Assembly (NCBI GenBank): GCA_001821765.1
Contig: MHOA01000007.1
Coordinates: forward strand, 9,565 to 73,564
DNA length: 64,000 nt
Reading direction: 5' to 3'
Source: Candidatus Ryanbacteria bacterium RIFCSPLOWO2_12_FULL_44_26
Lineage (GTDB): Bacteria > Patescibacteriota > Minisyncoccia > Ryanbacterales > HO2-45-13
Numbering within the stretch: position 1 is the first letter of the stretch; every line of letters starts with the position of its first letter. The position numbers were made by a program, and so were the translations under genes. The notes below the pieces were generated by a model that worked only from the letters and a program-made list of their open reading frames with translations, had not been told where the DNA came from and did no database searches. This document shows positions 11,045 through 26,895 of the stretch, piece after piece.

Positions 11045-11118
11045 GCGGAATTAGTTTAATGGCAGAACACGACCTTCCCAAGGTTGAGGCACGGGTTCGA
11101 TTCCCGTATTCCGCACCA
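11045..11118 (+). tRNA. tRNA-Gly (anticodon CCC)
   Basis: Cloverleaf read by hand: acceptor GCGGAAT/ATTCCGC, D-arm GTTT/GAAC, anticodon stem CGACC/GGTTG with loop TTCCCAA, T-arm ACGGG-TTCGATT-CCCGT, discriminator A plus encoded CCA. Confidence 0.8.
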
Positions 11119-11181
11119 AGATTGTACAGGCAGGAATTTTGCCCACTGATTTGGTGGGCAAAATTCCTGCCTGTACAATCT
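11119..11181. terminator. 28-bp perfect inverted repeat (bidirectional terminator-like hairpin) between convergent tRNAs
   Basis: AGATTGTACAGGCAGGAATTTTGCCCAC - TGATTTG - GTGGGCAAAATTCCTGCCTGTACAATCT; lies exactly between the 3' ends of tRNA-Gly (+) and tRNA-Thr (-). Confidence 0.55.
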
Positions 11182-11257
11182 TGGAGCCGATGGTCGGATT
11201 TGAACCGACGACCTATCCCTTACGAGGGGATTGCTCTACCAGCTGAGCTACATCGGC
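11182..11257 (-). tRNA. tRNA-Thr (anticodon CGT)
   Basis: Reverse complement folds as GCCGATG acceptor, GCTC/GAGC D-stem, ATCCC/GGGAT anticodon stem with loop CTCGTAA, GTCGG-TTCAAAT-CCGAC T-arm, CCA encoded. Confidence 0.8.
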
Positions 11258-11438
11258 AAATGATTTTTCGGGACTGTGTTGCTAAGCTACTGCGGTATAA
11301 CATGTGAGAGCAAAAGCATTGTTTTGCAGCTTACAAAGAGCATATTCTACAAGACAACACTACCGTAGCATAAAAGTTACTGTAGTTAAATCCCTTGCAG
11401 CTCTTCCTTATTTATGTGAAAAGCGTTACCATAGTTTC

Positions 11439-12534
11439 ATGGATCAGATGGAAAAGGCAGTTGAAGCGTTACAGGATAAAATCCGCCTCACGGCGGACTG
11501 TCTTTGACCTGTCCGTAAAACAAGAGGAGTTGCACAAGTTAGAGCAGGAAACACAAAAGGAGGGATTCTGGCGTGATCAAAAGCACGCGCAAGAGTTAAC
11601 GAGCCGAATTGCTGAACTGAAAGAAGACTGCACAAGATGGGAAAAGTTACAAAAGGACACCTCCGAATTGCTTGAGCTCGCAGCGCTCCATGACGAATCT
11701 CTGGCTGGTGATATAGAAGATCGTTATAACGCTCTTTACAAAGAATACGTTGATGCTGAAAAGAAACTCTTTCTTTCCGGCCCCCACGACAAAGGTAGCA
11801 CAGTCGTTTCGCTGTATGCAGGCGCTGGTGGGCAGGATGCCGAAGAGTGGGCTGCGATCTTGTATAGGATGTATACGCGGGTTTCTGAGCGGAAGGGTTG
11901 GAGACACACAATACTTCACGAACATAGAAACGAACACGGGGGGTTAAAAAACGCAACGATTGAGATGATAGGGCCATATGCCTACGGGCTTTTAAAAAAA
12001 GAGCGTGGAGTGCATCGTTTGGTGCGCATATCGCCTTATTCTGCAAAGAAATTGCGCCATACAAGCTTTGCCTTTGTGGAAGTGCTCCCAGTGTTTACGG
12101 AAACTGGTAATATAGATATAAAAGCAGAGGATCTTGATGTATCCTTTGCGCGCTCTTCCGGCCCGGGGGGACAAAATGTGAATAAACGTTCCACCGCAGT
12201 TCGTTTGATGCATAAACCCACTGGCATACAGGTGCATGTTGATTCCGGGCGTTCGCAGTCGGGTAATAGGGAAAAGGCGCTTAAAATTCTTGAAGCAAAA
12301 CTGATGCATGTTATGGAAACAACGAAAAAGAAGGAAGTCGAATCCATTAAAGGAGCAAATCCGGTAAAAATTGAATGGGGCAACCAGATCCGCTCGTACG
12401 TTTTTCATCCCTATAAACTTGTAAAAGATCACCGGACCAATGTTGAAACGTCCAGCGTTGATGAGGTGCTTGATGGAGTTATTGATGCATTTATTGATGC
12501 GGAAATTAGACTGGAAGTGGGGACAAAAAAGTAA
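11439..12534 (+). CDS. prfB: peptide chain release factor 2, with programmed +1 ribosomal frameshift at codon 23
   Basis: Frame 0 encodes MDQMEKAVEALQDKIRLTADCL then UGA. The +1 frame continues DLSVKQEELHKLEQ... with the RF2 hallmarks SPY (SPF-type) tripeptide and GGQ (SGPGGQNVNK). The two tracked ORFs (11304..11507 and 11395..12534) are halves of one gene. Confidence 0.9.
11499..11508 (+). promoter_or_regulatory. prfB autoregulatory +1 frameshift site (CUU UGA C)
   Basis: TGT CTT TGA C with the canonical slippery CUU followed by in-frame UGA and C; a GGCGGA Shine-Dalgarno-like element lies a few nt upstream. Confidence 0.85.
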
Positions 12535-14327: not shown

Positions 14328-14394
14328 AAGATAAAGGTTTTTTCTGTTTATAGGGGGGGTTGCAAAAAAATTGAATAGAGTGTAGAGTAGTACA

Positions 14395-14420
14395 CAAAAA
14401 CCGCATGGTGCGGTTTTTGT
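14395..14420 (+). terminator. intrinsic terminator after ftsX
   Basis: AAAAACCGCA-TGG-TGCGGTTTTTGTGTT hairpin flanked by A and T tracts. Confidence 0.55.
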
Positions 14421-14443
14421 GTTCTTCGAAAAAGGAGAAAGAG

Positions 14444-16126
14444 ATGAAGTTGGCAATGAAATTGTTGGTTGCCGTCGCGCTCATCGTGTGCGCGTCAGCC
14501 GAGGCGCGCGCCCAGGCGGGTACGCTTCCGCTCGATCACTTCATGTGCTACAAGGCGAAGCCGCCCAAGGGCACGCCAAAGTTCGTGCCGATCTCCGAAG
14601 TCATGCTCTGGGATCAGTTCGAGCGCGTAACCTTCGAGGTCAAGAAGCCGCTTGGCATCTGCAATCCGGCGCAGAAGTTTGAAGAACCGGTCTACGATGC
14701 CAAAACGCACCTGAAGGCGTACGCCATCAAGGCGATGCGCGACTCGGCAAAGCCAACCGAGCGCGAGTCGCTTGTGAAGGATCAGTTTCACAGGAACGGC
14801 CTTCGCATGTTGACCAAGCGCGCGCAGATTCTGCTCGTGCCGACGAGCAAGGATCTCGGCAATGTCGTGCCGCCTCCGCCGGATCCCGCGACGCACGTGG
14901 TGGATCACTTCATGTGCTACAAGGCGAAGCCGCCCAAGGGCATGAAGTGGGACAAGGTGACTGGAGTGAAGGTGGAGGACCAATTCCTTCAGCCAAAGCT
15001 CTACAATCTTCTACCGCGCTGGCTCTGCAACCCGGCCGACAAGTACTGGCAAGGCAAAGTTGAACCGCGGCACATTCCGCAGAGACATTTGCTTTGCTAC
15101 ATTGCGCGCCCCGCAAAGGGTCAGCCAAAGCATGAGCCGCGGCGCGTGAGTGTCAACAACCAGTTCGGCTCCGAGGTACTGGATACGGTCAAGGAAGATA
15201 TCTTCTGCATCCCCGCGGAGAAGGAGATCATTGTCCCTCAGCCGACCTGCGGCGACAACGCCGTCAATCAGGCAAGTGAGCAGTGCGACGGCGCTGACGA
15301 CAACGCATGCCCAGGCCAGTGCAAGCCGGATTGCACTTGTCCAACGACGGAGCCATTCTGTGGCGACGGTACGGTGAATCAGCCGAGCGAAGAATGCGAT
15401 CCCCCGGGATCGGTATGTGCTGGTGGGTTCGGCATTTGCAGTACAGACTGCAAGTGCAATGAGACAGACATCTTCTCGGCCACCACCGCTCAGGTGGAGG
15501 TGCGCTTTCCAAACGGCGCATCTGAAATCATCAATATGTCTGGGCCGACGACTGTAGAGGTTCGGCTTGGAGGTATCAGCGACATGGATGGTGACGGTCG
15601 TGAGGAGGTTGAGACCGAGATGCTGCAGCTCGAGCTCACGGGCACAAGCCCAATGCTTGGGCCGGTGAATGTTCGTCTGAATCCGACCATGCCGAGCCGC
15701 GGCATGATCAAGGAGCAGACGAACAATACGCCGGGCGTACTTGATCTGCCGCCGCTTGCGCCGTCAGGGTTGGCTGACTCGTTTTTCGATGTGTTCTTTG
15801 ACATCGAAGTGGCGGGCCAGACCCTGCACAATCAGCAGCCGAAGCACATGCGGACCGTGATCACGCACAAGCCGCCGGCGGAAGGCGAGACCTACGAGGA
15901 CCCGACGCCGATCGAGCTTTATGATGAGAACGGCCGGCCGACTGGTATCACGTTGGTCGGCGCGCACCACACACCCAATCCACCGCATGATCTTTGCGGC
16001 AACGGGCGAGTGGATCCGGGGGAGCTCTGCGACTGGTCGGCGAACCCGCCGACTTGCGCGTGTTCTACACTGGTGGTGGTCGGTTCCTGCGGGAACGATT
16101 GCCGGACCTGCTACGGCTGTCCGTAG
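14444..16126 (+). CDS. secreted cysteine-rich repeat protein (Myxococcus-type CxxCG.G...GE.CD repeats), on a high-GC island
   Basis: RBS AAAGGAGAAAGAG then ATG; signal peptide MKLAMKLLVAVALIVCASAEARAQA; three copies of the HFMCYKAKPPKG / LLCYIARPAKG motif; repeats CGDNAVNQASEQCDGADDN, CGDGTVNQPSEECD, CGNGRVDPGELCD; GC content far above flanks. Confidence 0.6.
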   Translation: MKLAMKLLVAVALIVCASAEARAQAGTLPLDHFMCYKAKPPKGTPKFVPISEVMLWDQFERVTFEVKKPLGICNPAQKFEEPVYDAKTHLKAYAIKAMRDSAKPTERESLVKDQFHRNGLRMLTKRAQILLVPTSKDLGNVVPPPPDPATHVVDHFMCYKAKPPKGMKWDKVTGVKVEDQFLQPKLYNLLPRWLCNPADKYWQGKVEPRHIPQRHLLCYIARPAKGQPKHEPRRVSVNNQFGSEVLDTVKEDIFCIPAEKEIIVPQPTCGDNAVNQASEQCDGADDNACPGQCKPDCTCPTTEPFCGDGTVNQPSEECDPPGSVCAGGFGICSTDCKCNETDIFSATTAQVEVRFPNGASEIINMSGPTTVEVRLGGISDMDGDGREEVETEMLQLELTGTSPMLGPVNVRLNPTMPSRGMIKEQTNNTPGVLDLPPLAPSGLADSFFDVFFDIEVAGQTLHNQQPKHMRTVITHKPPAEGETYEDPTPIELYDENGRPTGITLVGAHHTPNPPHDLCGNGRVDPGELCDWSANPPTCACSTLVVVGSCGNDCRTCYGCP

Positions 16127-16252
16127 CGAGCCAACACGGCCACTTTCTCCTAAATTAAACTTGGCGGTCCGACCGCCAAATCAGCCCCGGGGCGCATCCC
16201 ACGCGCCTCGGGGTATTTTTTTGATATTGATGCTGTACTGTAGATGGTTTCC

Positions 16253-16797
16253 TTAGACGCGGCTATAAGCTATAAGCCGGGAAAGGAGCGGCTGATATGC
16301 TGTATGCAATGTTTGCGTCGGTTTCGGTTTTGGCGTTGCGGCTTCTCTCGCCGCCGGCGCCGGTTTCAAAGGACTGCGCTTGTTCAATAGTTCCCAGCGA
16401 TCCAGCGTGCGTTTGACCGAAAACAGGCTTACTACAATTCCATCGTTGAGTAGCCCTCGATGGACAACTTCTGCGCTTCGTTTGACCTTCTTTCTCTTTT
16501 CTATGATTGTCCAAATCATTTCCTGTGATAATTCCTTTGGGTGATGATGAGGCCGTGATGATTGTGTGGTATCCGCTGCCATCCTCCGGTCGGGTCTTTT
16601 TTGTACCATTGTACTATTGTCCCTTGTGCATAACCCAGATGACAAGCGGCCTTTCTGGCACTCCAGTCCCTGTATTTTACGAGGCGGACTGCCTCCATGC
16701 GAACAAGAGGCATCTTGGGATTGGTTGTATATGGCATATGCATATATTCTTGCACAGGGTGATTCCAAGCTGTTGAACCATAACGGGGGGTTGACAT
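16253..16797 (-). pseudogene. transposase/integrase N-terminal remnant (IS481/IS3-like, HTH domains only, frameshifted, DDE core absent)
   Basis: Two HTH-like segments: AVRLVKYRDWSARKAACHLGYAQGTIVQWYKK and, in another frame, ELSQEMIWTIIEKRKKVKRSAEVVHRGLLNDGIVVSLFSVKRTLDRWELL. No catalytic domain follows. The ORF track splits it into 16516..16797 and the C-terminal part of 16253..17089. Confidence 0.45.
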
Positions 16798-16896
16798 AGC
16801 TATAATAGCATGCTACACTCCTTCCCAGTCGCACTTTATATAACCTGCCTATGAGGTCAATGACCAGTAGGCCAATAAATAGAAGGAGGGCCAGTA

Positions 16897-17436
16897 ATGG
16901 CGCCAAGTAACGATTTTCCTCCGCTCGATCTCGTTTTCCGTCGCGTCCAAAGGCGCGACAAGCCGGGCCAGAAGCAATGGCAGGCTTGCCGAAAGGGGAA
17001 TACTGCCACTGTTGTCTACACTCCGGACGACACCTCTCCTGATCCGGAAGCCGAGAACGAGCGGTGGCGGTGCGAGGAGGGACGGACAATCTTCAACGGG
17101 AATGACCTGCAGATTGTCTCGGTACATCTGCAGGAAAAGCTCCTCACCTATGGGGAGGTGGTGAAGCTTTGTTTCGAGCTCGTCGAACGCGGGAACGGCA
17201 AAGGAAAAAGCTGGCAGGCGCGCCGGAATGAAAACGGTGTCACCACCATTTTCGTCCCGGACAAGCGCGGCCCGCAACCGACCTCCTCGGACACGTTCTG
17301 GGAGGGGACGGTATCCTTTCTCGTTTACCGGAGTGATAATGGTTTACTCCGGATCGTCGCTGTTCAACTTGCCAAGGAGTTGATCAGTGAACGCGGAAAA
17401 CGGCGCCGTGATCGGAAGAAGGCGGCCAAGGTGTAG
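16897..17436 (+). CDS. hypothetical protein (high-GC island cargo)
   Basis: 179-aa ORF with the same elevated GC as 14444..16126; basic C-terminus; no motifs recognised. Confidence 0.4.
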   Translation: MAPSNDFPPLDLVFRRVQRRDKPGQKQWQACRKGNTATVVYTPDDTSPDPEAENERWRCEEGRTIFNGNDLQIVSVHLQEKLLTYGEVVKLCFELVERGNGKGKSWQARRNENGVTTIFVPDKRGPQPTSSDTFWEGTVSFLVYRSDNGLLRIVAVQLAKELISERGKRRRDRKKAAKV

Positions 17437-17441
17437 CATGT

Positions 17442-17482
17442 GCCCCGGGTGTGGTTTGAACCACGCTCGGGGCAATTTTTTA
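17442..17482 (+). terminator. imperfect hairpin plus T-tract at the right island boundary
   Basis: GCCCCGGGTGTGG-TTTGAA-CCACGCTCGGGGC followed by AATTTTTTATT. Confidence 0.35.
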
Positions 17483-17784
17483 TTATCGCATTATTCTTTT
17501 CCGAACAATTTTCTAAGTTTCGTTCCCGCTTGCTCAAGAATTTGTTTTTGATTTTTTTGGATGAATTTTTCCCGTAGATAATGATGTTTTTTGCTTTCCG
17601 CGCCATAGCATTTCGGTTTTACGTGATGTTATATTTTAATTTTTAACTTGGATAGTTATCAACAATGTTTCTCGACAGGAAGTAATACATATATTACCCT
17701 TAAAAAAGGCGATGTTCGTTTCCTTCGTTCCATGGCTCGAGGGAGGGTTCCAATATATGATTGTGCCCTAAAAACCCAATAGCT

Positions 17785-18181: not shown

Positions 18182-20257
18182 ATGCGGTATCTCAAAACCC
18201 ATTGGAAAGTAATAATCGTGGCGTTCTTTAGCGTATGGGCGGTATCGCGCACAATGAGCAATCATATTCTGTTTCTCTACGAGGCCCAGAAGTCCAATAT
18301 TGTTGTAGATCGAAATGGAAACGAAATTCTCATAAAACCAAACACTAAGGGGCACTATATGCGCCCCGTGGAGTCTGTTCCCGATGAGTTCTCAAAACAA
18401 CTCATAGCAAAAGAAGATCGCTTTTTCTACTACCATTTAGGGGTAAACCCTGTCAGCATCGTTCGTAGCCTTGCGAGCTATATTTTTACAAGCCGTTTTT
18501 CGGGGTCAAGCACGATTACCCAACAACTCGTTAAAAACCTCCTGGGCAATGAAAATGAGAGAAACATAAAAAATAAACTTGTGGAGATGCTGTATGCAGT
18601 AAGCCTTGAACTAAATACATCAAAAAAAGATATCCTCCAAATGTATTTTGACTCAGCATATTTCGGGAATCAATCCGAGGGCATTGTTGAGGCCTCAAAA
18701 TTCTACTTTGACAAAAATACTCAATCTTTAAGTACAATCGAGACTCTCCAGTTGCTTGCAACTTTAAACTACCCAGCAGATGGGCCACGGACACGCAGAA
18801 ACGATGAACGGGTTCTCGCCCTCGCAAGTCGTTTTGAACTCGAAATAGATGGGCAGACTTTAGCTGACACGCCGGATCCTACATATCAACGAAAGAGTGA
18901 AAATATATTTGAGCTCTTTTCCCTCTACAACTGCGAGACCTCGTGCAAACTCAGTATCGATAGCAATCTTACAAGCACTCTTCGAGAAGTACTTAAGAGA
19001 CATTTAGAAGGTCCGGCGTACGAGAGTGTAAAAAACGGCGCAATCGTTGTTATACGGCTGGACAAGACTAAAAATACAAACGAAATTCTGGCCATAGTAG
19101 GATCTCCATACCCTCATGTATCGCGCGATGGATATCAAATCAATATGGCAACCAGGCCGCGTCCCATAGGATCTACATCAAAACCATTTATATACGCAAA
19201 AGCTTTTGAGTCAGGAGCTCGACCTTATACAATTGTCGAGGACAGAGAATACAAGTACGACATTGGTACAGGATTTGCATTTTATCCAAAAAACTATGAT
19301 GGCAAATACCACGGCCCTGTTACTTTTCATTATGCACTCGCAAATAGTCTTAACGTGCCCGCGGTACGTGTATTGCAGTACGTGGGACTTGAAAACTTTG
19401 CGGAATTTTTAAGAGAAAAACTCGATTTTCGACCACAACAAGAACTCGAACAATATCAATTGAGTATTGCTCTTGGTGGACTTGAGATGGATTTACTTGA
19501 TCTTGCTCAATACTTCACCATTTTTCCAAATGAAGGAATACTAAAGCCACTTGCCATCAGCGAAAATCAATATCCAGAATTGCCAATGATGACACAACCC
19601 ATTATAGGAAGAGAGGCCTTTGATTCTGCTTATGCTCAGTTGGTGACAAAAGTGCTTTCTGATCGGACAACGGGCGTCGATCAGTTTGGTCTCAAAAGTA
19701 ACTTAAATTTACCAACACAAAACTATGCTGTAAAAACAGGCACGACATATGATTACCACGATAGTTGGACAATTGGCTATACACCTGATTTTGTCGTTGG
19801 TGTTTGGCTTGGCAACAGTGATAATACGGCAATGGAACACCTTTCAGGATCGGTTGGTGCTGGGAAAATCTGGCACGATGCGATGAATATTCTTCTAAAC
19901 TCTCCGTATAATTCAAGCAGGCAATTTAACTTTGATGAGGTTGTAGAGTATTGGGATGAAAATACCATAGAATACGGGCTTTGGGGAGATGATTACGAAT
20001 CAATAAAAAGACTCCTCGATTATGAAAGCCTTGTTTTAGAGCCTCACCATGGTGATACGTTGCAATTGGAAAAAGGAATGAAAGTGCCTTTCAGCGCAAG
20101 CGAGGTGGCACGTTGGTACGTCAATGGCGCTCTTATTGGGACGGAATCACAGATAACATGGGAGCCACAATCTGAAGGAAGTTTTAACATCACCGCAGAG
20201 AGTTTCGATGGAACAATAGAACGTTTAACGATATCAATTACTGCGAGAGGATTCTAG
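18182..20257 (+). CDS. class A penicillin-binding protein (transglycosylase + transpeptidase), PbpC-like with extra C-terminal domain
   Basis: GT51 motifs EDRFFYYHLGVNP and GSSTITQQLVKN; transpeptidase SxxK (GSTSKPF), KTGTT; ~170-aa C-terminal extension after KTG as in PBP1C. Confidence 0.8.
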   Translation: MRYLKTHWKVIIVAFFSVWAVSRTMSNHILFLYEAQKSNIVVDRNGNEILIKPNTKGHYMRPVESVPDEFSKQLIAKEDRFFYYHLGVNPVSIVRSLASYIFTSRFSGSSTITQQLVKNLLGNENERNIKNKLVEMLYAVSLELNTSKKDILQMYFDSAYFGNQSEGIVEASKFYFDKNTQSLSTIETLQLLATLNYPADGPRTRRNDERVLALASRFELEIDGQTLADTPDPTYQRKSENIFELFSLYNCETSCKLSIDSNLTSTLREVLKRHLEGPAYESVKNGAIVVIRLDKTKNTNEILAIVGSPYPHVSRDGYQINMATRPRPIGSTSKPFIYAKAFESGARPYTIVEDREYKYDIGTGFAFYPKNYDGKYHGPVTFHYALANSLNVPAVRVLQYVGLENFAEFLREKLDFRPQQELEQYQLSIALGGLEMDLLDLAQYFTIFPNEGILKPLAISENQYPELPMMTQPIIGREAFDSAYAQLVTKVLSDRTTGVDQFGLKSNLNLPTQNYAVKTGTTYDYHDSWTIGYTPDFVVGVWLGNSDNTAMEHLSGSVGAGKIWHDAMNILLNSPYNSSRQFNFDEVVEYWDENTIEYGLWGDDYESIKRLLDYESLVLEPHHGDTLQLEKGMKVPFSASEVARWYVNGALIGTESQITWEPQSEGSFNITAESFDGTIERLTISITARGF

Positions 20258-23200
20258 CGCGCCTCTTTTACAGTAAATAGTTCTCCGCGAGTTCTACCGA
20301 AGTTTTCAGGAAAGTACATTTCACTTGCGACGGCAGGCAGATGGTGAAATGTTCCAGGAACAAGGGCACGTACAAAATATTCATATTCGTATACACCGGG
20401 AGCAAGGCGTTCTTTGAAGAGAAAGGCGCGATCATCATGTAACTCATCTGCATCCGGGTAGAGAGGAGATACGATTTTTACTTGCCTGCCATAAAAATCG
20501 TCTTCGAGTTCACCTTCAACGGCTGGAGAAACGGCAGGCCCGTCCAGTCTAAAGAATCGACGAAATGACGACCAAATATTTGCAAGACCGGGATTACTCA
20601 ACATACCGACCCCGCCCTCATAATAATCGTCGTTATAGTAATTATCATAGTAGTAATCATTTCCAGGAAATTCACTTTGTAGAGATTGATCTTCTGTGGC
20701 GAGACTCAAATTCACAATCTCCATACCAGCAGGAATGTAATCTTCAATCGACACAAAGTTTCTCTGATGCGGGGTAGCGATCACAAGACGAACCCTAAGC
20801 ATATCTCCCTGAGTAGCTTCGAGTATTGGGGTTTCTCTTTCCTCATCATCAACTCTATAGAACTCACGAGTTACGGAAAAGCCTTCATCACGAGGTGGAA
20901 TATTTTCCACGGGCAAGTAATATTTCAGCAGGATGTCGTAGTAGTAATTATTTGGCATCTCGTTTTTGTTTGTCTTTGTCAAAGTAAACGACCTCAATTT
21001 TCCAAGACCTAGGTCTTGGGTGGAAATAAACTTTGTGAACGTCTTAAAAATTGAATCTTTTTTGAAAGTAAAGGTTGCTTGTGGGTTTGTATCGAGAGAA
21101 AGATTAAGATCAAACTCTGACTCGGTTTCCTGTTTCCATAAGAGAAAATCGGTAAATGCATCGACAACGGCAATAGTATTATTCGTAGAACCCCATGCGC
21201 CATCTTTCGCCCTGCTTCGCAAGATCCACCGCAGTACTTTATCAATCACTGGATTATCACGCTCATCAACAGCTAATGCTTTTAGATACAGTGCGGTGTC
21301 TTTAACTGGAGTTTCATAAAATTGATAGAGTGTATTTGCTACATTCGGCCTTATCGATGCTCCTCGAGAATCAATAACAAGTTTATTCTCAAGCGCGGTG
21401 AAGACATTGTTCGCGAGATCCTGGGAAGCACTACCCGATAGAATGAGAGCTAAATATGTAAGACTTGTGTTTGAAGCTTTCTCGCTCACATACTGCTGAT
21501 TACGAGCAAGCGTTAAAGTCTTGTTTCGTATTTCCCCGTCATAGTTGTGGCCATAAATACGAGAAAGCGTGTAATCGCTCAAAATAACAAGATCGTTGTT
21601 ATCCCGAAGCTCATTTTTTTGACGAAGTTGCCCGCGAAGAAATGTTCCTGCACGATCGATCCGCGAAGCATCAATGTCGTAGCCGGCTTCTTTAAGATCT
21701 ACTAAGGCAGTTACGACATGAAGGGTTAGATAGTAATTAGAGGGCATGCCCTTGTAATATGAAAACCCTCCGTCTGATGATTGATTTTCATATAGCCGTG
21801 CAAGACCAATACGAACCACATCGTCAGGAGAATAGGTTTGCCCCTCAAATGTTACATTATCAAGTGTGAATGCATCACCAATGTTTTTTAGAGAGAGCCC
21901 ACGCCTGAGAATACCAAGAGCGCTTAACTTGCTTGCGATCTGCTCACTACAACCGTATGGGTATTCAACCAGGTAATTAAGAGCATCGGAAAGGAATACA
22001 GCAAGTGTAGCGCTAGTTTTTACTTCAAGACCACCACGATCAGGAATAACATTCGGGGGTAGATATATATACTCTCGTGTTGTTGCAACGTCCGTATATG
22101 CTGCGGTTGCAACTGATTCATACGTATTGTTTCGTGTGATGCTTATCGAATTCTCGACGGTATCCTCGTAGTCACTGTTCTTGGCAGAAACGATGAATGT
22201 ATGCGATCCATCCTGTACTGCTTGTGGTGCTTCAACTGGGAAATACACGGTCATAGAGTCATGTGCATTCAATGTTATTGAGAGTTCCTTCTTCCCAGTC
22301 AGAATAAGGCCGCCACCTTCAAGAGAGACGTCGAGTTTCTGGCGATTCTCTGTTTCATTAAATACTTGGGCACCAATGAAGAACGCGTCACCCGGGACAA
22401 TAAAGCGGGGTCTTAGTGGCACTACTGTCACTTCCTTCTGCGCCTTAAATTCCCGATACCCAACACCGACTTTGGAATCTTTTGTGATACCAACAGATTC
22501 GATTTGCCACGTTGTTAAGTTATCCGGCAAGATGAATGAAACTCTTGCTCGACCGCTTGTATCAGTGCGAACTATGCCCTCCCAATATGCGGTGTCTTTG
22601 AATACACCTCGTTTTTTCTTTGCCGGATCCTCACCGCCGCCGCTACCACCTTTCGTGCCAGTGGGTATATCAACTTCGTGTAATATATTTTTAATATTTG
22701 AAGCGGTACTCACCGTGAGCGGAGTTCCTCGATAGAAAAAGAGTACTGGGTTCTTCTTTGGATTTCCCTTGAGCGCGAGTACACTCATATCAACAACTGC
22801 AAGAGAAACCTCCGTCTCTAACGATCTGCCAAATTTATCCTTTGTTTCAACGTTGAGCTCAACCGTTTCCCCAGGAAGATAACTATTTTTATTGGACTGA
22901 ACGTTTATATCAATTTCTCGTTCTTTTGTGTTTACTTGATATTGAATCTGATTATGTTTGATCTCTGGTTCTGGAGATAAGAGAAGAACGGAACCGAATA
23001 CATTCGGAATATGCTCATCTTTCACCTGAAATACATACTCTGTTAAATTGTTGACTATAGAAATAATCTCATAGTGAAATACCTTGCCGCGCTCAAGGGT
23101 TACAAGAGCTTTTGCACGCTCATATGGAGACTTGATAATTATTTTTACTTGATCGCCAACATTAACCTCCGCCTTATTTGTTGCAAGTTCGAGCGTTTCG

Positions 23201-26200
23201 TTATTGGTTGGTCGTATGCTTACACTTCCTCTTCCCGAGACATAAAGATCGTATGTTGCAACAACGCGGTTACCACGATCATCATTCCCTGCTACAAAAA
23301 CCTCATATTCTCCTGGCGTTTCAAGAGAAAACTCATAAGAAGCGTCCCCATTTCCGTTCGTCCTGAGAGTTGTCTTTTTGACGGTCTCTTTTTTCTGTTC
23401 GGTTCTATAGTAATAGTTGCCATCTACTTCCCGACGCTTAAACGACTCCCAAGTAACTTTCTTAATCTCAAGCTCGAGCCCGCCAACTGATATTGGCGCA
23501 CCCTTCACATCGACAGTTTTTATACGTGCCGTTGTGCTTTCGTTTTGACCGAGAAAACTTCGATCAAGATTAATGCCTGTGTAGTGCCCCCCGCGGTGAA
23601 CAATGAATGATTTTTGAGTCGAAATAGATTGGCCATTCCTATTCCTTACCGTTACGTTGAGTGTGAATATCTTGCTTCTTACACTTTCCTCTTCTTTAAA
23701 TAACTTTTCAAAATCAAGCTTCTGTTCAAGCGACGCACTCCCGTCAGTTCCAAGAGGAACACTGCCTCGTAAGATGTATGTATCACCATAATAGCCATCA
23801 AACCCGTAGTACCAGGGATTCCCGAACCTAAAGTATTGATCACGGTAACGGTCAAAAAAGAAGTCCTGACTTGAAAGCGAGTATTCAACAGTCCCGCTCT
23901 CCACTGGAACGCCAAAGAAGTATTCAGCATTCACAGCGATATGAGCAGTATCGCCCGCAACATATTCTTCTTGATTGGTTTTTGCTTCAACATTAAACGC
24001 TGCGGGTACGTACTCTTCTACATCAAACGACACGTAACCACCGAGTGCCGAGATAGAGTACGTTCCAAGTGGGGCATTTGCGTCCAATGTGAAATTGGCA
24101 GTAAATGTTCCGTATTCACTTACATCTACAGACTGCTTGGAGACAGTTTCATACTTGCTATTTCGGATTTCTATTTCTGCTTTCTTGCCACGATATATCT
24201 CATACTCATCATCATATCCAAGACGAAAGATTCCTTTAATAAAGACCTGGTGGCCCGGGCGGTAAATAGGGCGGTCCGTATAGAGATACGTTCGTTCAGC
24301 AGCCTGAGCAGTTGATGCGTACTGTAGCTTATCGTAACTAGAGGCGACAATCGCGCTGTCACCACCCTTTCGAACGATGGCAGCCATAAGATTATCGAAC
24401 GTATTCGTAAGTGCAATACCATCGTTACCTGTAAAGTAAGAGCCGACGGCTTCCTGATTTTTGCGATAGAGAGTCACTTGTGCACCAGCGACTGGGGCAA
24501 GACTCCCAATTTCGGAAACCCAATAGAGATTTTGTGGGGTTTGTGATAATAAAACATTCGTTAACACATCTTTGCTCGCGGAAGCGCTACCAAAGTCTCG
24601 CCGCTCAATTTTTTTCTCTTGGACCGCAAGGTGTGTTATGGAAAGATATGATTTTTCATAAAGCGCCTGGTCAACCCTCTCCTCATACTTTCTCTCTTGT
24701 GCATTCCATATGCGGTGCACTCTCCTATAATCAGGGTGACTAAACGTTAAAACATAGTGCCCGAGCGAGTCTCCGATATAATTCTTGAGATTGACTTGGA
24801 AGTAACTACGTGACCAGTATTTCCTTGGTAAATTGATGCGATCTTGAATTGTGTTTATACAATTCAATGTACTTGGTGGCGACGTAATTTCTGGTCTGTC
24901 TTCGATATACGATAACATTACTTCTGGTGAGACTTCGCATATGTGTAAGTTGACGTATTCTAGGTTATCTGAAGCAAAGGTCAGTTTTGTACGTCCCGGA
25001 GAAGTAATGTTGTACATGCCTTGCATCTGATAGAAGGTACGATCAAACGAAGTCAATTTGCCACTCGTGAAGCTTACCTTTCTCGATATACTTTGACCAA
25101 AATCATCAAGAAGATTCAATGTGATTTCATAGGGAAACTCGGGCACAAGACCGTACAAGATTGTGTTTTCAAACTGCCCAACCTCACATGCAACCTCCGA
25201 GGTTTTCTCGCGTACCCTATATGGCCCGTACCAATTCCACAATCCGATAGTCACATTACTCTTAACGCGCTCGTAAAAAACTTCTTCATCAGGAACAGTG
25301 AGCGGGTTTGATGTGCAGACCTTTAATGCCTTCAAATCAGCGCCCTGAGCACCACTTTCGGGAGAAGTTTTGTATATAACAAGATCGGGGAACGTTTTAA
25401 CGGTTCTCGTTATTGTTTCTGCGTTGAGTTGTAACCCGGCTGTATTGTATATGCGCTTAAATTCTATAGATATTGATTGTCCGCGTTGCAATTTTGACTC
25501 GTCAAATTTGATAGAAACCCGCTTTCTATCTGGAACTTTTTCACAATTACTACCGTATGAGACTTCCTCGCCCGCATCTGGTTCGCGGCATTTCTCGCCA
25601 TATTCGATACTTGAAATGTGATCCGCCGAAATGAAACTCGCATCCTTATCTATATCTTCAAAAAATGAAACCCAAATCTTTCCTTGGGGATCAAAAAGAT
25701 CTGATTCAGCAAACTGTGTGCGAGGCGATTCAGCCGATACCGTGTCTATAATGTCTGTCGTTTGCATTGCTCCCGCACGTACCTGATTGAGGTCTATATC
25801 TCCTTCAAGTGGATATGCTTTCTTTAAAGTATACGTGTACCCAGTATTAAAATCCCAAAATTGTTTACGCCCATGCTGATCAGCTTCGTTGTAAATCTCA
25901 AGTATTGATTTATCGAGTTTGCGTATTCGCTTTCCAGATGCATCATCATGTACAAACCGAGATCCATAAGAAGCGATAAAATTAACCCGATCATTCCCAC
26001 GCTTTAGAGTAAGTTCGCCTTTCGTTCGCTCGATATTGATCGGTTGATTAAAAACAATGCGAATTGGTTCGTTATATAATGTTTTCGAACTATTATGATT
26101 TTGTGGGATCTCACCTTCATAACGGAGTGGCCATGTAATAAATGCATACTCTTTTTCGTTTACCGAAAGACCATCCGTTGAAACAAAGCCAGACTTCACA

Positions 26201-26895
26201 CGGACCGTGTAGTGAGACGAACGCTGCAGGCGACTCTCTGGAATAAACTGTAGATCACGTGTCGTAATCCATTTGAATTTACCAGGAGTTGTTGGATGTA
26301 TCTCGACAGGAATATTTTCTTCAGACAAAACATCAAGCGCGGTAAGGGGAACCATTGGCCTATTAAATATAATTGTTATTTCGGAGTATTCCGACGCTTC
26401 CGACCCTCCTGCAGGAAAAATGGATATTACCTTCGGATCTTCATCCGCAAGAAAGTCCTTTTCGAGGCGTATTTCGTTCGTTGCCAGAATAACTGTATAG
26501 TATTTTCCAAGTTCAAGTTTCTCTTTCGGTTGATACACCAGCTCGTCATCCTTATTGCCAGCCCTCCAATCACCAGCAACAGCGGGCTCGAACGTCACTT
26601 TAGTGCTTGCTTCGGCGACGTTGAATTTGATGCCTTCGGGTAACCGCACCACAATAGCAGCGCTTTGTGAGATTTTATCCGGAACAAGCGTATAAATTTC
26701 TTCGTACCCGCCCTGTAGATTGCCTCCGTATTTTTGGAATATAAAAAAACCGCCGATGACGATTACCGCAAACACACCTAAAACCACTTCCCATTTTTTG
26801 AGGTGAAAATGATGTGGTTCTGGTGTTTGCACTTGGGCGGGAATGTTGGGTTGAGGTGGATTTACTGGCAAGCTAAGTCCTGTCGACTCATCCAT
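20254..26895 (-). CDS. alpha-2-macroglobulin family protein (bacterial A2M-like, 2213 aa, membrane-anchored)
   Basis: N-terminal TM anchor; YPYGCSEQ thioester-type CxEQ motif in the expected C-terminal third; very long MG-domain-like beta-rich body; size typical of bacterial A2M (YfhM-like) homologues. Confidence 0.6.
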   Translation of the reverse strand: MDESTGLSLPVNPPQPNIPAQVQTPEPHHFHLKKWEVVLGVFAVIVIGGFFIFQKYGGNLQGGYEEIYTLVPDKISQSAAIVVRLPEGIKFNVAEASTKVTFEPAVAGDWRAGNKDDELVYQPKEKLELGKYYTVILATNEIRLEKDFLADEDPKVISIFPAGGSEASEYSEITIIFNRPMVPLTALDVLSEENIPVEIHPTTPGKFKWITTRDLQFIPESRLQRSSHYTVRVKSGFVSTDGLSVNEKEYAFITWPLRYEGEIPQNHNSSKTLYNEPIRIVFNQPINIERTKGELTLKRGNDRVNFIASYGSRFVHDDASGKRIRKLDKSILEIYNEADQHGRKQFWDFNTGYTYTLKKAYPLEGDIDLNQVRAGAMQTTDIIDTVSAESPRTQFAESDLFDPQGKIWVSFFEDIDKDASFISADHISSIEYGEKCREPDAGEEVSYGSNCEKVPDRKRVSIKFDESKLQRGQSISIEFKRIYNTAGLQLNAETITRTVKTFPDLVIYKTSPESGAQGADLKALKVCTSNPLTVPDEEVFYERVKSNVTIGLWNWYGPYRVREKTSEVACEVGQFENTILYGLVPEFPYEITLNLLDDFGQSISRKVSFTSGKLTSFDRTFYQMQGMYNITSPGRTKLTFASDNLEYVNLHICEVSPEVMLSYIEDRPEITSPPSTLNCINTIQDRINLPRKYWSRSYFQVNLKNYIGDSLGHYVLTFSHPDYRRVHRIWNAQERKYEERVDQALYEKSYLSITHLAVQEKKIERRDFGSASASKDVLTNVLLSQTPQNLYWVSEIGSLAPVAGAQVTLYRKNQEAVGSYFTGNDGIALTNTFDNLMAAIVRKGGDSAIVASSYDKLQYASTAQAAERTYLYTDRPIYRPGHQVFIKGIFRLGYDDEYEIYRGKKAEIEIRNSKYETVSKQSVDVSEYGTFTANFTLDANAPLGTYSISALGGYVSFDVEEYVPAAFNVEAKTNQEEYVAGDTAHIAVNAEYFFGVPVESGTVEYSLSSQDFFFDRYRDQYFRFGNPWYYGFDGYYGDTYILRGSVPLGTDGSASLEQKLDFEKLFKEEESVRSKIFTLNVTVRNRNGQSISTQKSFIVHRGGHYTGINLDRSFLGQNESTTARIKTVDVKGAPISVGGLELEIKKVTWESFKRREVDGNYYYRTEQKKETVKKTTLRTNGNGDASYEFSLETPGEYEVFVAGNDDRGNRVVATYDLYVSGRGSVSIRPTNNETLELATNKAEVNVGDQVKIIIKSPYERAKALVTLERGKVFHYEIISIVNNLTEYVFQVKDEHIPNVFGSVLLLSPEPEIKHNQIQYQVNTKEREIDINVQSNKNSYLPGETVELNVETKDKFGRSLETEVSLAVVDMSVLALKGNPKKNPVLFFYRGTPLTVSTASNIKNILHEVDIPTGTKGGSGGGEDPAKKKRGVFKDTAYWEGIVRTDTSGRARVSFILPDNLTTWQIESVGITKDSKVGVGYREFKAQKEVTVVPLRPRFIVPGDAFFIGAQVFNETENRQKLDVSLEGGGLILTGKKELSITLNAHDSMTVYFPVEAPQAVQDGSHTFIVSAKNSDYEDTVENSISITRNNTYESVATAAYTDVATTREYIYLPPNVIPDRGGLEVKTSATLAVFLSDALNYLVEYPYGCSEQIASKLSALGILRRGLSLKNIGDAFTLDNVTFEGQTYSPDDVVRIGLARLYENQSSDGGFSYYKGMPSNYYLTLHVVTALVDLKEAGYDIDASRIDRAGTFLRGQLRQKNELRDNNDLVILSDYTLSRIYGHNYDGEIRNKTLTLARNQQYVSEKASNTSLTYLALILSGSASQDLANNVFTALENKLVIDSRGASIRPNVANTLYQFYETPVKDTALYLKALAVDERDNPVIDKVLRWILRSRAKDGAWGSTNNTIAVVDAFTDFLLWKQETESEFDLNLSLDTNPQATFTFKKDSIFKTFTKFISTQDLGLGKLRSFTLTKTNKNEMPNNYYYDILLKYYLPVENIPPRDEGFSVTREFYRVDDEERETPILEATQGDMLRVRLVIATPHQRNFVSIEDYIPAGMEIVNLSLATEDQSLQSEFPGNDYYYDNYYNDDYYEGGVGMLSNPGLANIWSSFRRFFRLDGPAVSPAVEGELEDDFYGRQVKIVSPLYPDADELHDDRAFLFKERLAPGVYEYEYFVRALVPGTFHHLPAVASEMYFPENFGRTRGELFTVKEAR

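Follow-up and report, generated by a model that had tools for sequence, protein, structure and literature searches.

DynF, which is encoded in an enediyne gene cluster (dynemicin) of Micromonospora chersina, is an eight-stranded barrel with palmitate inside a hydrophobic cavity (PDB 6ubl; PMC8725005). The DUF7450 family (PF24247) has no member with known function or solved structure. These two, together with the Myxococcus cysteine-rich repeat (TIGR02232; Pfam DUF4215, PF13948) and the IS481 family of insertion sequences (IS; NF033577, with rve and rve_3 domains), are the described systems to which the parts of a 3-kb region can be compared. The region occupies positions 14444 to 17440 of a 64,000-nt stretch of the genome of Candidatus Ryanbacteria bacterium RIFCSPLOWO2_12_FULL_44_26 (GCA_001821765.1, contig MHOA01000007.1, positions 9,565 to 73,564), a bacterium of the candidate phyla radiation (CPR, Patescibacteria). 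We call the whole analysed stretch the window. A sequence-only reading had described the region as one GC-rich island of foreign origin, encoding a secreted protein with Myxococcus-type repeats and a second GC-rich product, and had taken an integrase remnant between the two genes as the vehicle of acquisition.

The reading that we consider probable is a different one. Between ftsX and a penicillin-binding protein gene there would be two transcription units, separate from each other and both of foreign composition, and a decayed IS481-type element would lie between the two. Unit A (about 14356 to 16222) would be an old, self-contained cassette circulating in the CPR, with its own promoter-like element, leader hairpin, ribosome-binding site (RBS), coding sequence, 3' hairpin and terminator. 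Unit B (16791 to 17481) would be a strongly promoted gene unrelated to unit A, and the IS element would have been inserted independently. The features of the region lie on the forward strand, except the IS remnant, which lies on the reverse strand. Seen simply as gene transfer, the case is an ordinary one: an AT-rich genome holds a GC-rich foreign gene that has been partly ameliorated. Its interest for CPR biology is modest.

Composition and boundaries of the region

In 300-nt windows, the GC content is 0.39–0.45 up to 14499, 0.54–0.65 over 14350–16300, 0.46–0.50 over 16300–16900, 0.52–0.58 over 16750–17500, and 0.38–0.43 beyond. At third codon positions (GC3), it is 0.743 in the first gene (14444–16126) and 0.678 in the second (16897–17436), against 0.38–0.50 in the neighbouring prfB, ftsE, ftsX, and penicillin-binding protein genes. 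Across 43 long open reading frames of the window, the mean GC3 is 0.438 (standard deviation 0.073), which places the first gene about 4 standard deviations out. The rise at 14444 and the fall after 17440 that had been noticed from the letters are therefore borne out by both measures: GC climbs from 0.40–0.45 to 0.58–0.65 in the two genes, and GC3, which averages 0.44 over the window, is 0.74 and 0.68 there. Composition uniform with the host can be dismissed, in support of a foreign composition. The amino-acid content of a Cys/Gly/Pro/Ala-rich protein is ruled out as the source of the GC excess by GC3 and by the GC content at four-fold degenerate sites, which is 0.71–0.81.

The notion of one island did not survive. 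Composition changes within the region: the two GC-rich coding regions stand apart, with about 770 nt like the host in composition between them, and the two genes are not linked at any other locus examined. Both genes deviate from the host in composition, as is expected of a genomic island, and unit A also has a patchy distribution with a family centred in another lineage. The marks of a single mobile unit (an integrase, a tRNA target, or flanking direct repeats) are not seen at this locus: no direct repeats were found at the region borders, and no tRNA lies there, the nearest being at 11045–11257, which rules out tRNA-targeted integration.

The composition steps are sharp (14444, 16126, 16897, and 17440), as they would be if a GC-rich fragment of another organism had been joined to an AT-rich contig by an error of assembly or binning. 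To this explanation we give next to no weight. The region is 100% identical over 16–20 kb in six assemblies (two metagenome-assembled genomes (MAGs) at NCBI, three megahit assemblies at ENA, and one at JGI), which were made by different groups with different assemblers from different samples; as far as assemblies can show, then, the joins are not chimeric. The steps also fall at start and stop codons within AT-rich regulatory stretches whose sequence is conserved in other CPR copies, and a GC-rich gene in an AT-rich context recurs in four further Ryanbacteria copies (L008, L010, L012, and L014; GC3 0.70–0.79 against flanks of 0.40–0.50). Both products are identical to proteins of another genome, Candidatus Ryanbacteria bacterium RIFCSPHIGHO2_02_FULL (GCA_001819895.1), from the Rifle aquifer: the 560-aa product to A3C80_00100 and the 179-aa product to A3C80_00115. 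The Rifle genome set that includes it is described in PMC5079060.

The limits of unit A are best seen in the comparison with L008, in which a nucleotide similarity of 80–89% spans exactly 14356–16182, with unrelated flanks. The neighbours change from genome to genome: the cassette follows ftsX in the window and a peroxiredoxin gene in L008, L010, and L012, and precedes prfB in L011. At its 5' edge is a putative promoter-like element (TTGCAA-N17-TAGAGT, 14360–14388), which is below the scan threshold; the window, L008, L010, and L012 nevertheless all have it conserved, even with ftsX upstream in the first and peroxiredoxin in the other three. A leader hairpin follows (14389–14425; inverted repeat I2), with a 14–17-bp stem, a 3-nt loop, and a T run; its 17-nt arms are 94% complementary, its RNA fold has an energy of −24.4 kcal/mol (z −5.6), and it is present in all four cassette copies. 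Beyond the coding sequence lie the 3' cassette hairpin CTTGGCGG-TCCGA-CCGCCAA (16160–16179) and an intrinsic terminator with a 12-bp GC-rich stem followed by T7 (16184–16222, stem 16184–16214; z −4.7 for the double hairpin). The 3' hairpin, with its segment CTTGGCGGTCCGACCGCCAA, is conserved in the same four copies even where the preceding coding half is unrelated; the cassette hairpin motifs are ACCGCATGGTGCGGTTTTT and CTTGGCGGTCCGACCGCCAAG. In other words, the RBS, hairpins, and terminators reported at the borders are present, but the description of them as host-type flanks has to be given up: these signals travel with the gene, because they are conserved in genomes with different neighbouring genes, and the promoter region, RBS, and hairpins are part of what was transferred.

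Translation would begin at 14444, 6 nt after an RBS (AGGAG, 14433–14437), whereas the GenBank start is 14405. The segment GTTCTTCGA-AA before the RBS is invariant in the four cassette copies, and it, or a small hairpin at the same place, may be a translational control element. This small conserved hairpin (14426–14443), which comes after the leader hairpin, can pair UUCUU with the Shine-Dalgarno sequence GGAGA. It should also be mentioned that the RBS region AGGAGAAAG is perfectly complementary to CTTTCTCCT, just past the stop codon, within 22-nt arms (14433–14454 and 16130–16151) that are 73% complementary; the post-stop copy is conserved in L008. No riboswitch or known RNA was found in the leader by Rfam. 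An integron-cassette interpretation of the 3' hairpin, considered by eye only, was set aside: there is no integrase nearby, and a perfect 20-nt hairpin is unlike typical attC sites.

Origin and movement of unit A

In a distribution scan that used one genome per species, DUF7450 genes were found in many copies in Candidatus Binatia, "uncultured delta proteobacterium", and Myxococcales MAGs, as well as in several other GC-rich phyla. In these homes, the GC content of the gene equals that of its flanks (host GC 0.57–0.72), and GC3 is mostly 0.8–0.93 (range 0.60–0.95). A GC-rich genome holds about 10 or more paralogues, whereas the small-genome CPR host has a single copy. The suggested link to Myxococcales and deltaproteobacterial lineages is thus upheld insofar as the family is most expanded there and in the Binatia. 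The best hits, which had been expected in myxobacteria or deltaproteobacteria, are in the same lineage as the window, the very outcome by which the note had said that it could be refuted. The nearest full-length relatives are all of CPR type (P0002 at 80% identity, P0003 at 60%, P0005 at 50%, and P0008 at 47%), and their genes sit among small-genome housekeeping genes on Ryanbacteria or CPR-type contigs. In a neighbour-joining tree of the DUF7450 part (200 bootstraps), all the CPR copies form one clade (198/200). One CPR genome of 53% GC (L011, which is the same as L013) has a copy of native composition.

These data bear on the simplest form of the transfer hypothesis, in which the whole 3-kb island came recently and directly from a myxobacterium or deltaproteobacterium, carried by the IS481-type element. 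The GC-rich composition, the abundance of DUF7450 in Myxococcales, delta-proteobacterial, and Binatia MAGs, and the IS fragment between two GC-rich genes all speak for it. We nevertheless hold it to be very improbable. The nearest-relative test already contradicts it: the best non-CPR match has 33–44% identity, in the N-terminal part, against 49–86% within the CPR. The CPR copies are held together in the tree, the AT-rich leader and hairpins are common to other CPR copies, GC3 (0.74) is lower than in most of the sampled GC-rich homes, and the two genes are never linked elsewhere. The evidence from the IS element, which also goes against it, is given below.

A second alternative is a single ancient acquisition followed by vertical inheritance in the Ryanbacteria, with either selection or GC-biased gene conversion, at a locus prone to recombination, keeping GC3 high. 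The monophyly of the CPR copies agrees with it, as do the position of the gene beside a peroxiredoxin gene in both L008 and L010/L012, the clear signs of recombination at the locus, and the second gene's family, which is GC-rich relative to its host at five of six loci. Vertical descent is harder to reconcile with the different locus of the window cassette (after ftsX) and with its place before prfB in the 53%-GC CPR genome. Reported effects of GC-biased conversion in bacteria are a few percent in size, not the 30 points needed here. The synonymous divergence (dS) also speaks against it. Among Ryanbacteria copies, dS ranges from 0.55 (window and L008) to 1.29 (window and L010), and the ratio of non-synonymous to synonymous substitution (dN/dS) against CPR orthologues is 0.15–0.24; judged by this ratio, the cassette gene is under purifying selection. 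When L008 is compared with L010, the housekeeping genes next to the cassette prove to be saturated at synonymous sites (four-fold identity 0.29–0.37), and the cassette gene has a four-fold identity of 0.47 and a dS (1.13) far below theirs. This lower dS favours exchange among CPR lineages after their divergence. We consider vertical inheritance unlikely.

The course of events would then be as follows. The coding sequence of unit A would have reached the CPR lineage from a donor rich in GC, of Binatia, "Deltaproteobacteria", or Myxococcota type, probably in a single event that was not recent; afterwards, the cassette would have passed among Ryanbacteria-type genomes and moved between loci, becoming partly ameliorated. 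A GC3 of 0.74, between the 0.8–0.93 of most GC-rich homes and the 0.44 of the host, fits partial amelioration from a donor near 0.85–0.9 under a simple two-state decay. Some observations weigh on the other side. Just 38 of 200 bootstraps support the sister group of the CPR clade, which weighs against naming one donor lineage. The low dS of the cassette, compared with host genes, could be due in part to codon bias. For unit A, neither a mobility gene nor a target-site duplication nor an empty site was found, and an FtsX-based scan of metagenome contigs for a sister genome or an empty site returned only relatives of 25–31% identity.

Modules of the secreted protein and their exchange

The first gene (14444–16126) encodes a 560-aa modular protein, for which an AlphaFold model was built on 120 homologues. 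Its model confidence (predicted local distance difference test, pLDDT) is above 95 in both beta modules and about 50–60 in the Cys-rich linkers. Residues 1–25 (14444–14518) read as a Sec signal peptide, cleaved between MKLAMKLLVAVALIVCASAEARA and QA, with a charged n-region, a hydrophobic core, and an AxA site; in the model, residues 2–25 are helical, and no canonical lipobox is seen in the peptide as read from the sequence. Export through the Sec pathway is predicted, and the mature protein has 26 cysteines. The claim of a secreted, Cys-rich product built of repeats is therefore supported.

Residues 29–260 (14528–15223) comprise two DUF7450 repeats in four half-units. PF24247 matches two stretches above its gathering threshold (E 9.7e-20; 71.3 bits against a cut-off of 27), and this part is modelled with high confidence as all-beta. 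A half-unit opens with H(F/L)xCY, holds (D/N)QF, and closes with ...P..K, with a Cys before the closing motif (C(N/I)P..K) in three of the four. The openers at residues 32, 155, and 215 are the three motif copies counted from the sequence, to which a degenerate fourth can be added: half-unit 1b opens with HLKAY (residue 89) and closes with LLVPTSK, without Cys. Cys158/195 and Cys218/255 are invariant in the homologue alignment. The DUF7450 proteins of Binatia, Deltaproteobacteria, and Myxococcota are built of the same H(F/L)xCY...(D/N)QF...CNP..K half-units, and those of the GC-rich phyla are, like the protein here, fused to other extracellular modules. Two stretches of this part had been called identical over 37 nt; the identity is real, and the exact direct repeat is 40 nt long (14534–14573 and 14903–14942, by repeat search). 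It appears to be a recent intragenic conversion tract, because the two sub-repeats are otherwise only 29% identical in DNA and the closest relative, L008, does not have the identity.

Cys-rich units that open with CG(D/N)G...E.CD begin at residues 269, 306, and 518. The first two are CGDG-type linker repeats (residues 269–342; 15248–15469), located by motif and modelled with a pLDDT of 50–60; the third is in the C-terminal tail (residues 518–560, CGNGRVDPGELCD...CYGCP; 15995–16123), which was also located by motif, has low model confidence, and is common to P0002 and P0003. These units had been assigned to the Myxococcus cysteine-rich repeat. The opening, CG(D/N)G.V....E.CD, is indeed shared by all three copies, but the second half differs (C.G.C..DC.C here and DGN...GDGCS..C there), and membership of that family was rejected: neither PF13948 nor TIGR02232 matches the whole protein (E≤1) or the excised Cys-rich segments (E≤10), with the reservation that HMMER filters may drop very weak matches. 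A bona fide PF13948 example beside DUF7450 is CGNGQLDGAEQCDDGNTAAGDGCSANC in the relative P0097.

Residues 343–513 (15470–15982) are predicted to form the same eight-stranded up-and-down beta-barrel as DynF. The model of this domain, with a pLDDT above 95, is an antiparallel barrel superposable on DynF, and 6ubl_A is the only PDB match of the 560-aa model at E≤0.001 (Foldseek E 8.6e-8, prob 1.00, target template modelling (TM) score 0.63, 186 columns). The sequence identity is 18%. A family profile aligns DynF residues 57–129 with the C-terminal beta domain, although its similarity is weak, over the motif '...TE(I/M)..L.LTG....LG.V.V.LNP'. DynF is a free-standing chain of about 211 residues that forms a dimer in the crystal, whereas the barrel here is a single module within a secreted multidomain protein rich in disulfides, and no biosynthetic genes lie near the locus.

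The C-terminal module varies between strains of the same species. L010, L012, and L014 all belong to Ryanbacteria RIFCSPLOWO2_12_FULL_47_9c. L010 and L012 agree to 99.6–99.9% in the flanks and in roughly the first 850 nt of the gene (to about codon 283), become unalignable from there to the stop codon, and are similar again after it. The divergence begins in the Cys-rich linker region, at a conserved linker (window residues 269–342). The proteins P0003, P0008, and P0012 likewise share their first 283 mature residues (P0003 numbering) and then have different C-terminal modules; P0003 and P0008 are identical at 282 of these 283 residues, differing at P278T. The three alleles of this species have the same N-terminal half and unrelated C-terminal modules: one is DynF-like, and two have PT-rich linkers and a divergent domain ending in SFFDIF. 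The divergent segments are L010 10850–11604 and L012 10889–11805, and L014 ends at the divergence point; assemblies of this species break at or just past the DUF7450 gene. For the window's own species, contig L007 matches without a single difference over the 11.6 kb downstream of 15860; upstream of that position, where the contig breaks, it has a mosaic segment.

The protein of unit A would thus combine an N-terminal DUF7450 beta-module that stays constant with disulfide-rich linkers and, towards the C-terminus, a barrel of DynF type that can be exchanged. A constant N-terminus with an exchangeable C-terminus, joined in a conserved linker, is the pattern of strain-variable surface proteins such as phage receptor-binding proteins and polymorphic toxins. 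Here, however, no gene for a toxin, an immunity protein, or a phage function lies nearby, and the likeness is one of evolutionary pattern only. A phage or defence origin was ruled out: the second gene's family has no PHROG match, neither protein has a PADLOC match, and the 560-aa protein has no meaningful fold match in a viral structure set. The product is most likely an extracellular or surface protein of ligand binding or adhesion, with a binding end diversified by recombination, and the swapping of C-termini between near-identical strains marks it as being under diversifying pressure.

CPR bacteria are thought to be unable to make their own membrane lipids, the source of which is unknown (bioRxiv 10.1101/465690 = PMC7242380). 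A Sec-exported protein with a variable, palmitate-type barrel is a concrete and testable candidate for lipid capture or host contact in this group. In the most specific form of the idea, a DUF7450 stalk would present an exchangeable fatty-acid-binding barrel that takes up hydrophobic molecules of host cells, or docks onto their membranes, on behalf of a lipid-auxotrophic symbiont, the hairpin-bounded cassette being the vehicle by which modules are traded among the Ryanbacteria. We put this forward as a rather improbable proposal. Several findings tell against the main reading of the unit A product as a binding protein. The function of DynF itself is unproven (PMC8725005). The match to PF19550 (DUF6073) is marginal, with 23.4 bits for the whole protein and 26.5 for the isolated domain against a cut-off of 25, the latter covering only profile positions 87–174 of 219. 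Foldseek found nothing structurally related to the DUF7450 module in either the PDB or the viral set, and for this reason a role in binding or adhesion is deduced only.

The insertion-sequence remnant, the second gene, and the neighbourhood

Between the two genes lies the IS481-type remnant (16310–16790, reverse strand), which comprises a left inverted repeat and about 125–140 N-terminal transposase codons. It has two helix-turn-helix (HTH) segments and one frameshift near 16575; positions 46–118 of NF033577 match at E 1.9e-5, as does HTH_28, and the frameshift-corrected peptide is 60–66% identical to rve/rve_3 transposases of about 280 aa (E down to 1e-45). The N-terminal HTH region, an 'SRPHH.P' linker, and the terminal inverted repeat are shared with the IS481 family; the repeat, CCGTTATGGTTCAACAGCTTGGAATCAC, ends at 16786–16790 and matches the ends of intact copies. 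The remnant keeps only about 450 of some 950–1200 bp: the similarity ends near residue 125–140, no match to the rve (DDE) domain was found in it, and only the left repeat is present. The frameshift and the loss of the DDE domain and the right end mean that the element is dead, which bears out the earlier description of a truncated, frameshifted N-terminal fragment with two HTH segments and no DDE core.

The further claim, that this element was the vehicle of acquisition, is not upheld. Its GC content (0.495) is host-like, and intact copies of about 0.95–1.2 kb (GC 0.49–0.52) are found in AT-rich contigs, including some from the same aquifer project. Directly next to the left IS end comes the −35 box of the promoter of the second gene (window 16786–16796), and the same IS-promoter junction arose independently at L100, where a related IS (46% identical in its N-terminus), oriented alike, sits right before the −35 box of a second-gene homologue; L101 and L102 have the empty site for this insertion (L100 1010–1045 against L101 440–470). 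The box is TTGAC(A/T), in distant members of the 179-aa family. On account of the host-like GC and of the same junction with an empty site elsewhere, the remnant is better read as an independent insertion, which again argues against direct transfer of the whole region. The element would have inserted immediately upstream of the −35 box of unit B and later lost its catalytic two-thirds. These junctions suggest that IS481-type elements may prefer strong TTGAC(A/T) promoters as targets.

Unit B begins with this promoter (16791–16819), a strong sigma-70-type element (TTGACA, 17 nt, TG-n-TACACT; 10 of 12 consensus positions plus the TG) that abuts the IS end. A near-consensus TTGACA-N17 promoter is found upstream of family members at all six loci, with a TG-extended −10 box at five; L097, L098, L100/L101, and L104 share the architecture, and L103 is without the TG element. 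The coding sequence (16897–17436; RBS GAAGGAGG at 16882–16889) encodes a cytoplasmic protein of 179 aa and is followed by an intrinsic terminator (17441–17481) with a 15-bp stem (hairpin 17441–17474, then T6; −30 kcal/mol, z −6.2). A word-index search returned only the protein itself, and the gene looked like an orphan until a full HMMER scan gave 32 distant relatives (best E 3e-18). No match to the family was found in Pfam or PHROG. The source named for one member is a Patescibacteria bacterium, and, as far as members are named, the family appears to be confined to the Patescibacteria. The homologue loci are L097 5106–5678, L098 1061–1615, L100 1113–1634, L104 8001–8909, and L103 8001–8663. 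At four further loci, GC3 is 0.49–0.85 against AT-rich CPR-type hosts of 0.35–0.49 GC, and at L103 the composition equals that of the host; the gene is GC-richer than its host at five of the six loci examined.

The alignment of the family shows an internal duplication, with two tandem modules of about 80 residues and a basic tail. The AlphaFold model (AF2, pLDDT 93.9) has two oligonucleotide/oligosaccharide-binding (OB)-like beta barrels and a basic C-terminal helix. The fold matches are to tandem-OB nucleic-acid binders only (the N-terminus of RNase R/II, HIN-200 domains, RPA, and SSB), and all are weak (E 2e-3 and above, TM 0.2–0.3), which counts against the assignment. From the predicted fold, this tandem OB-like protein probably binds nucleic acid. 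Taken together, the results offer a first structural view of DUF7450, of DUF6073 in a secreted context, and of the tandem OB-like family, all three of them uncharacterised.

The genes of this neighbourhood run in the order murJ, lepA, ftsB-like, prfB, ftsE, ftsX, the region described here, a class A penicillin-binding protein gene, and an alpha-2-macroglobulin gene. The nearest tRNA genes, a convergent pair of tRNA-Gly(CCC) and tRNA-Thr(CGT) at 11045–11257, lie just upstream of prfB, and within them (11134–11184) the NCBI MAG L001 differs in length from the other assemblies by about 40 nt. The start of prfB (11395–12534) is called differently by different gene callers, giving 352–379 aa, and some assemblies have a 67-aa and a 357-aa open reading frame in its place; this disagreement would fit the programmed +1 frameshift that is usual in prfB. 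The gene at 20254–26895, on the reverse strand, encodes a 2213-aa bacterial alpha-2-macroglobulin-type protein (MG2, A2M, and TED domains) and adjoins the class A penicillin-binding protein gene, a known pairing that is seen here in a CPR genome.

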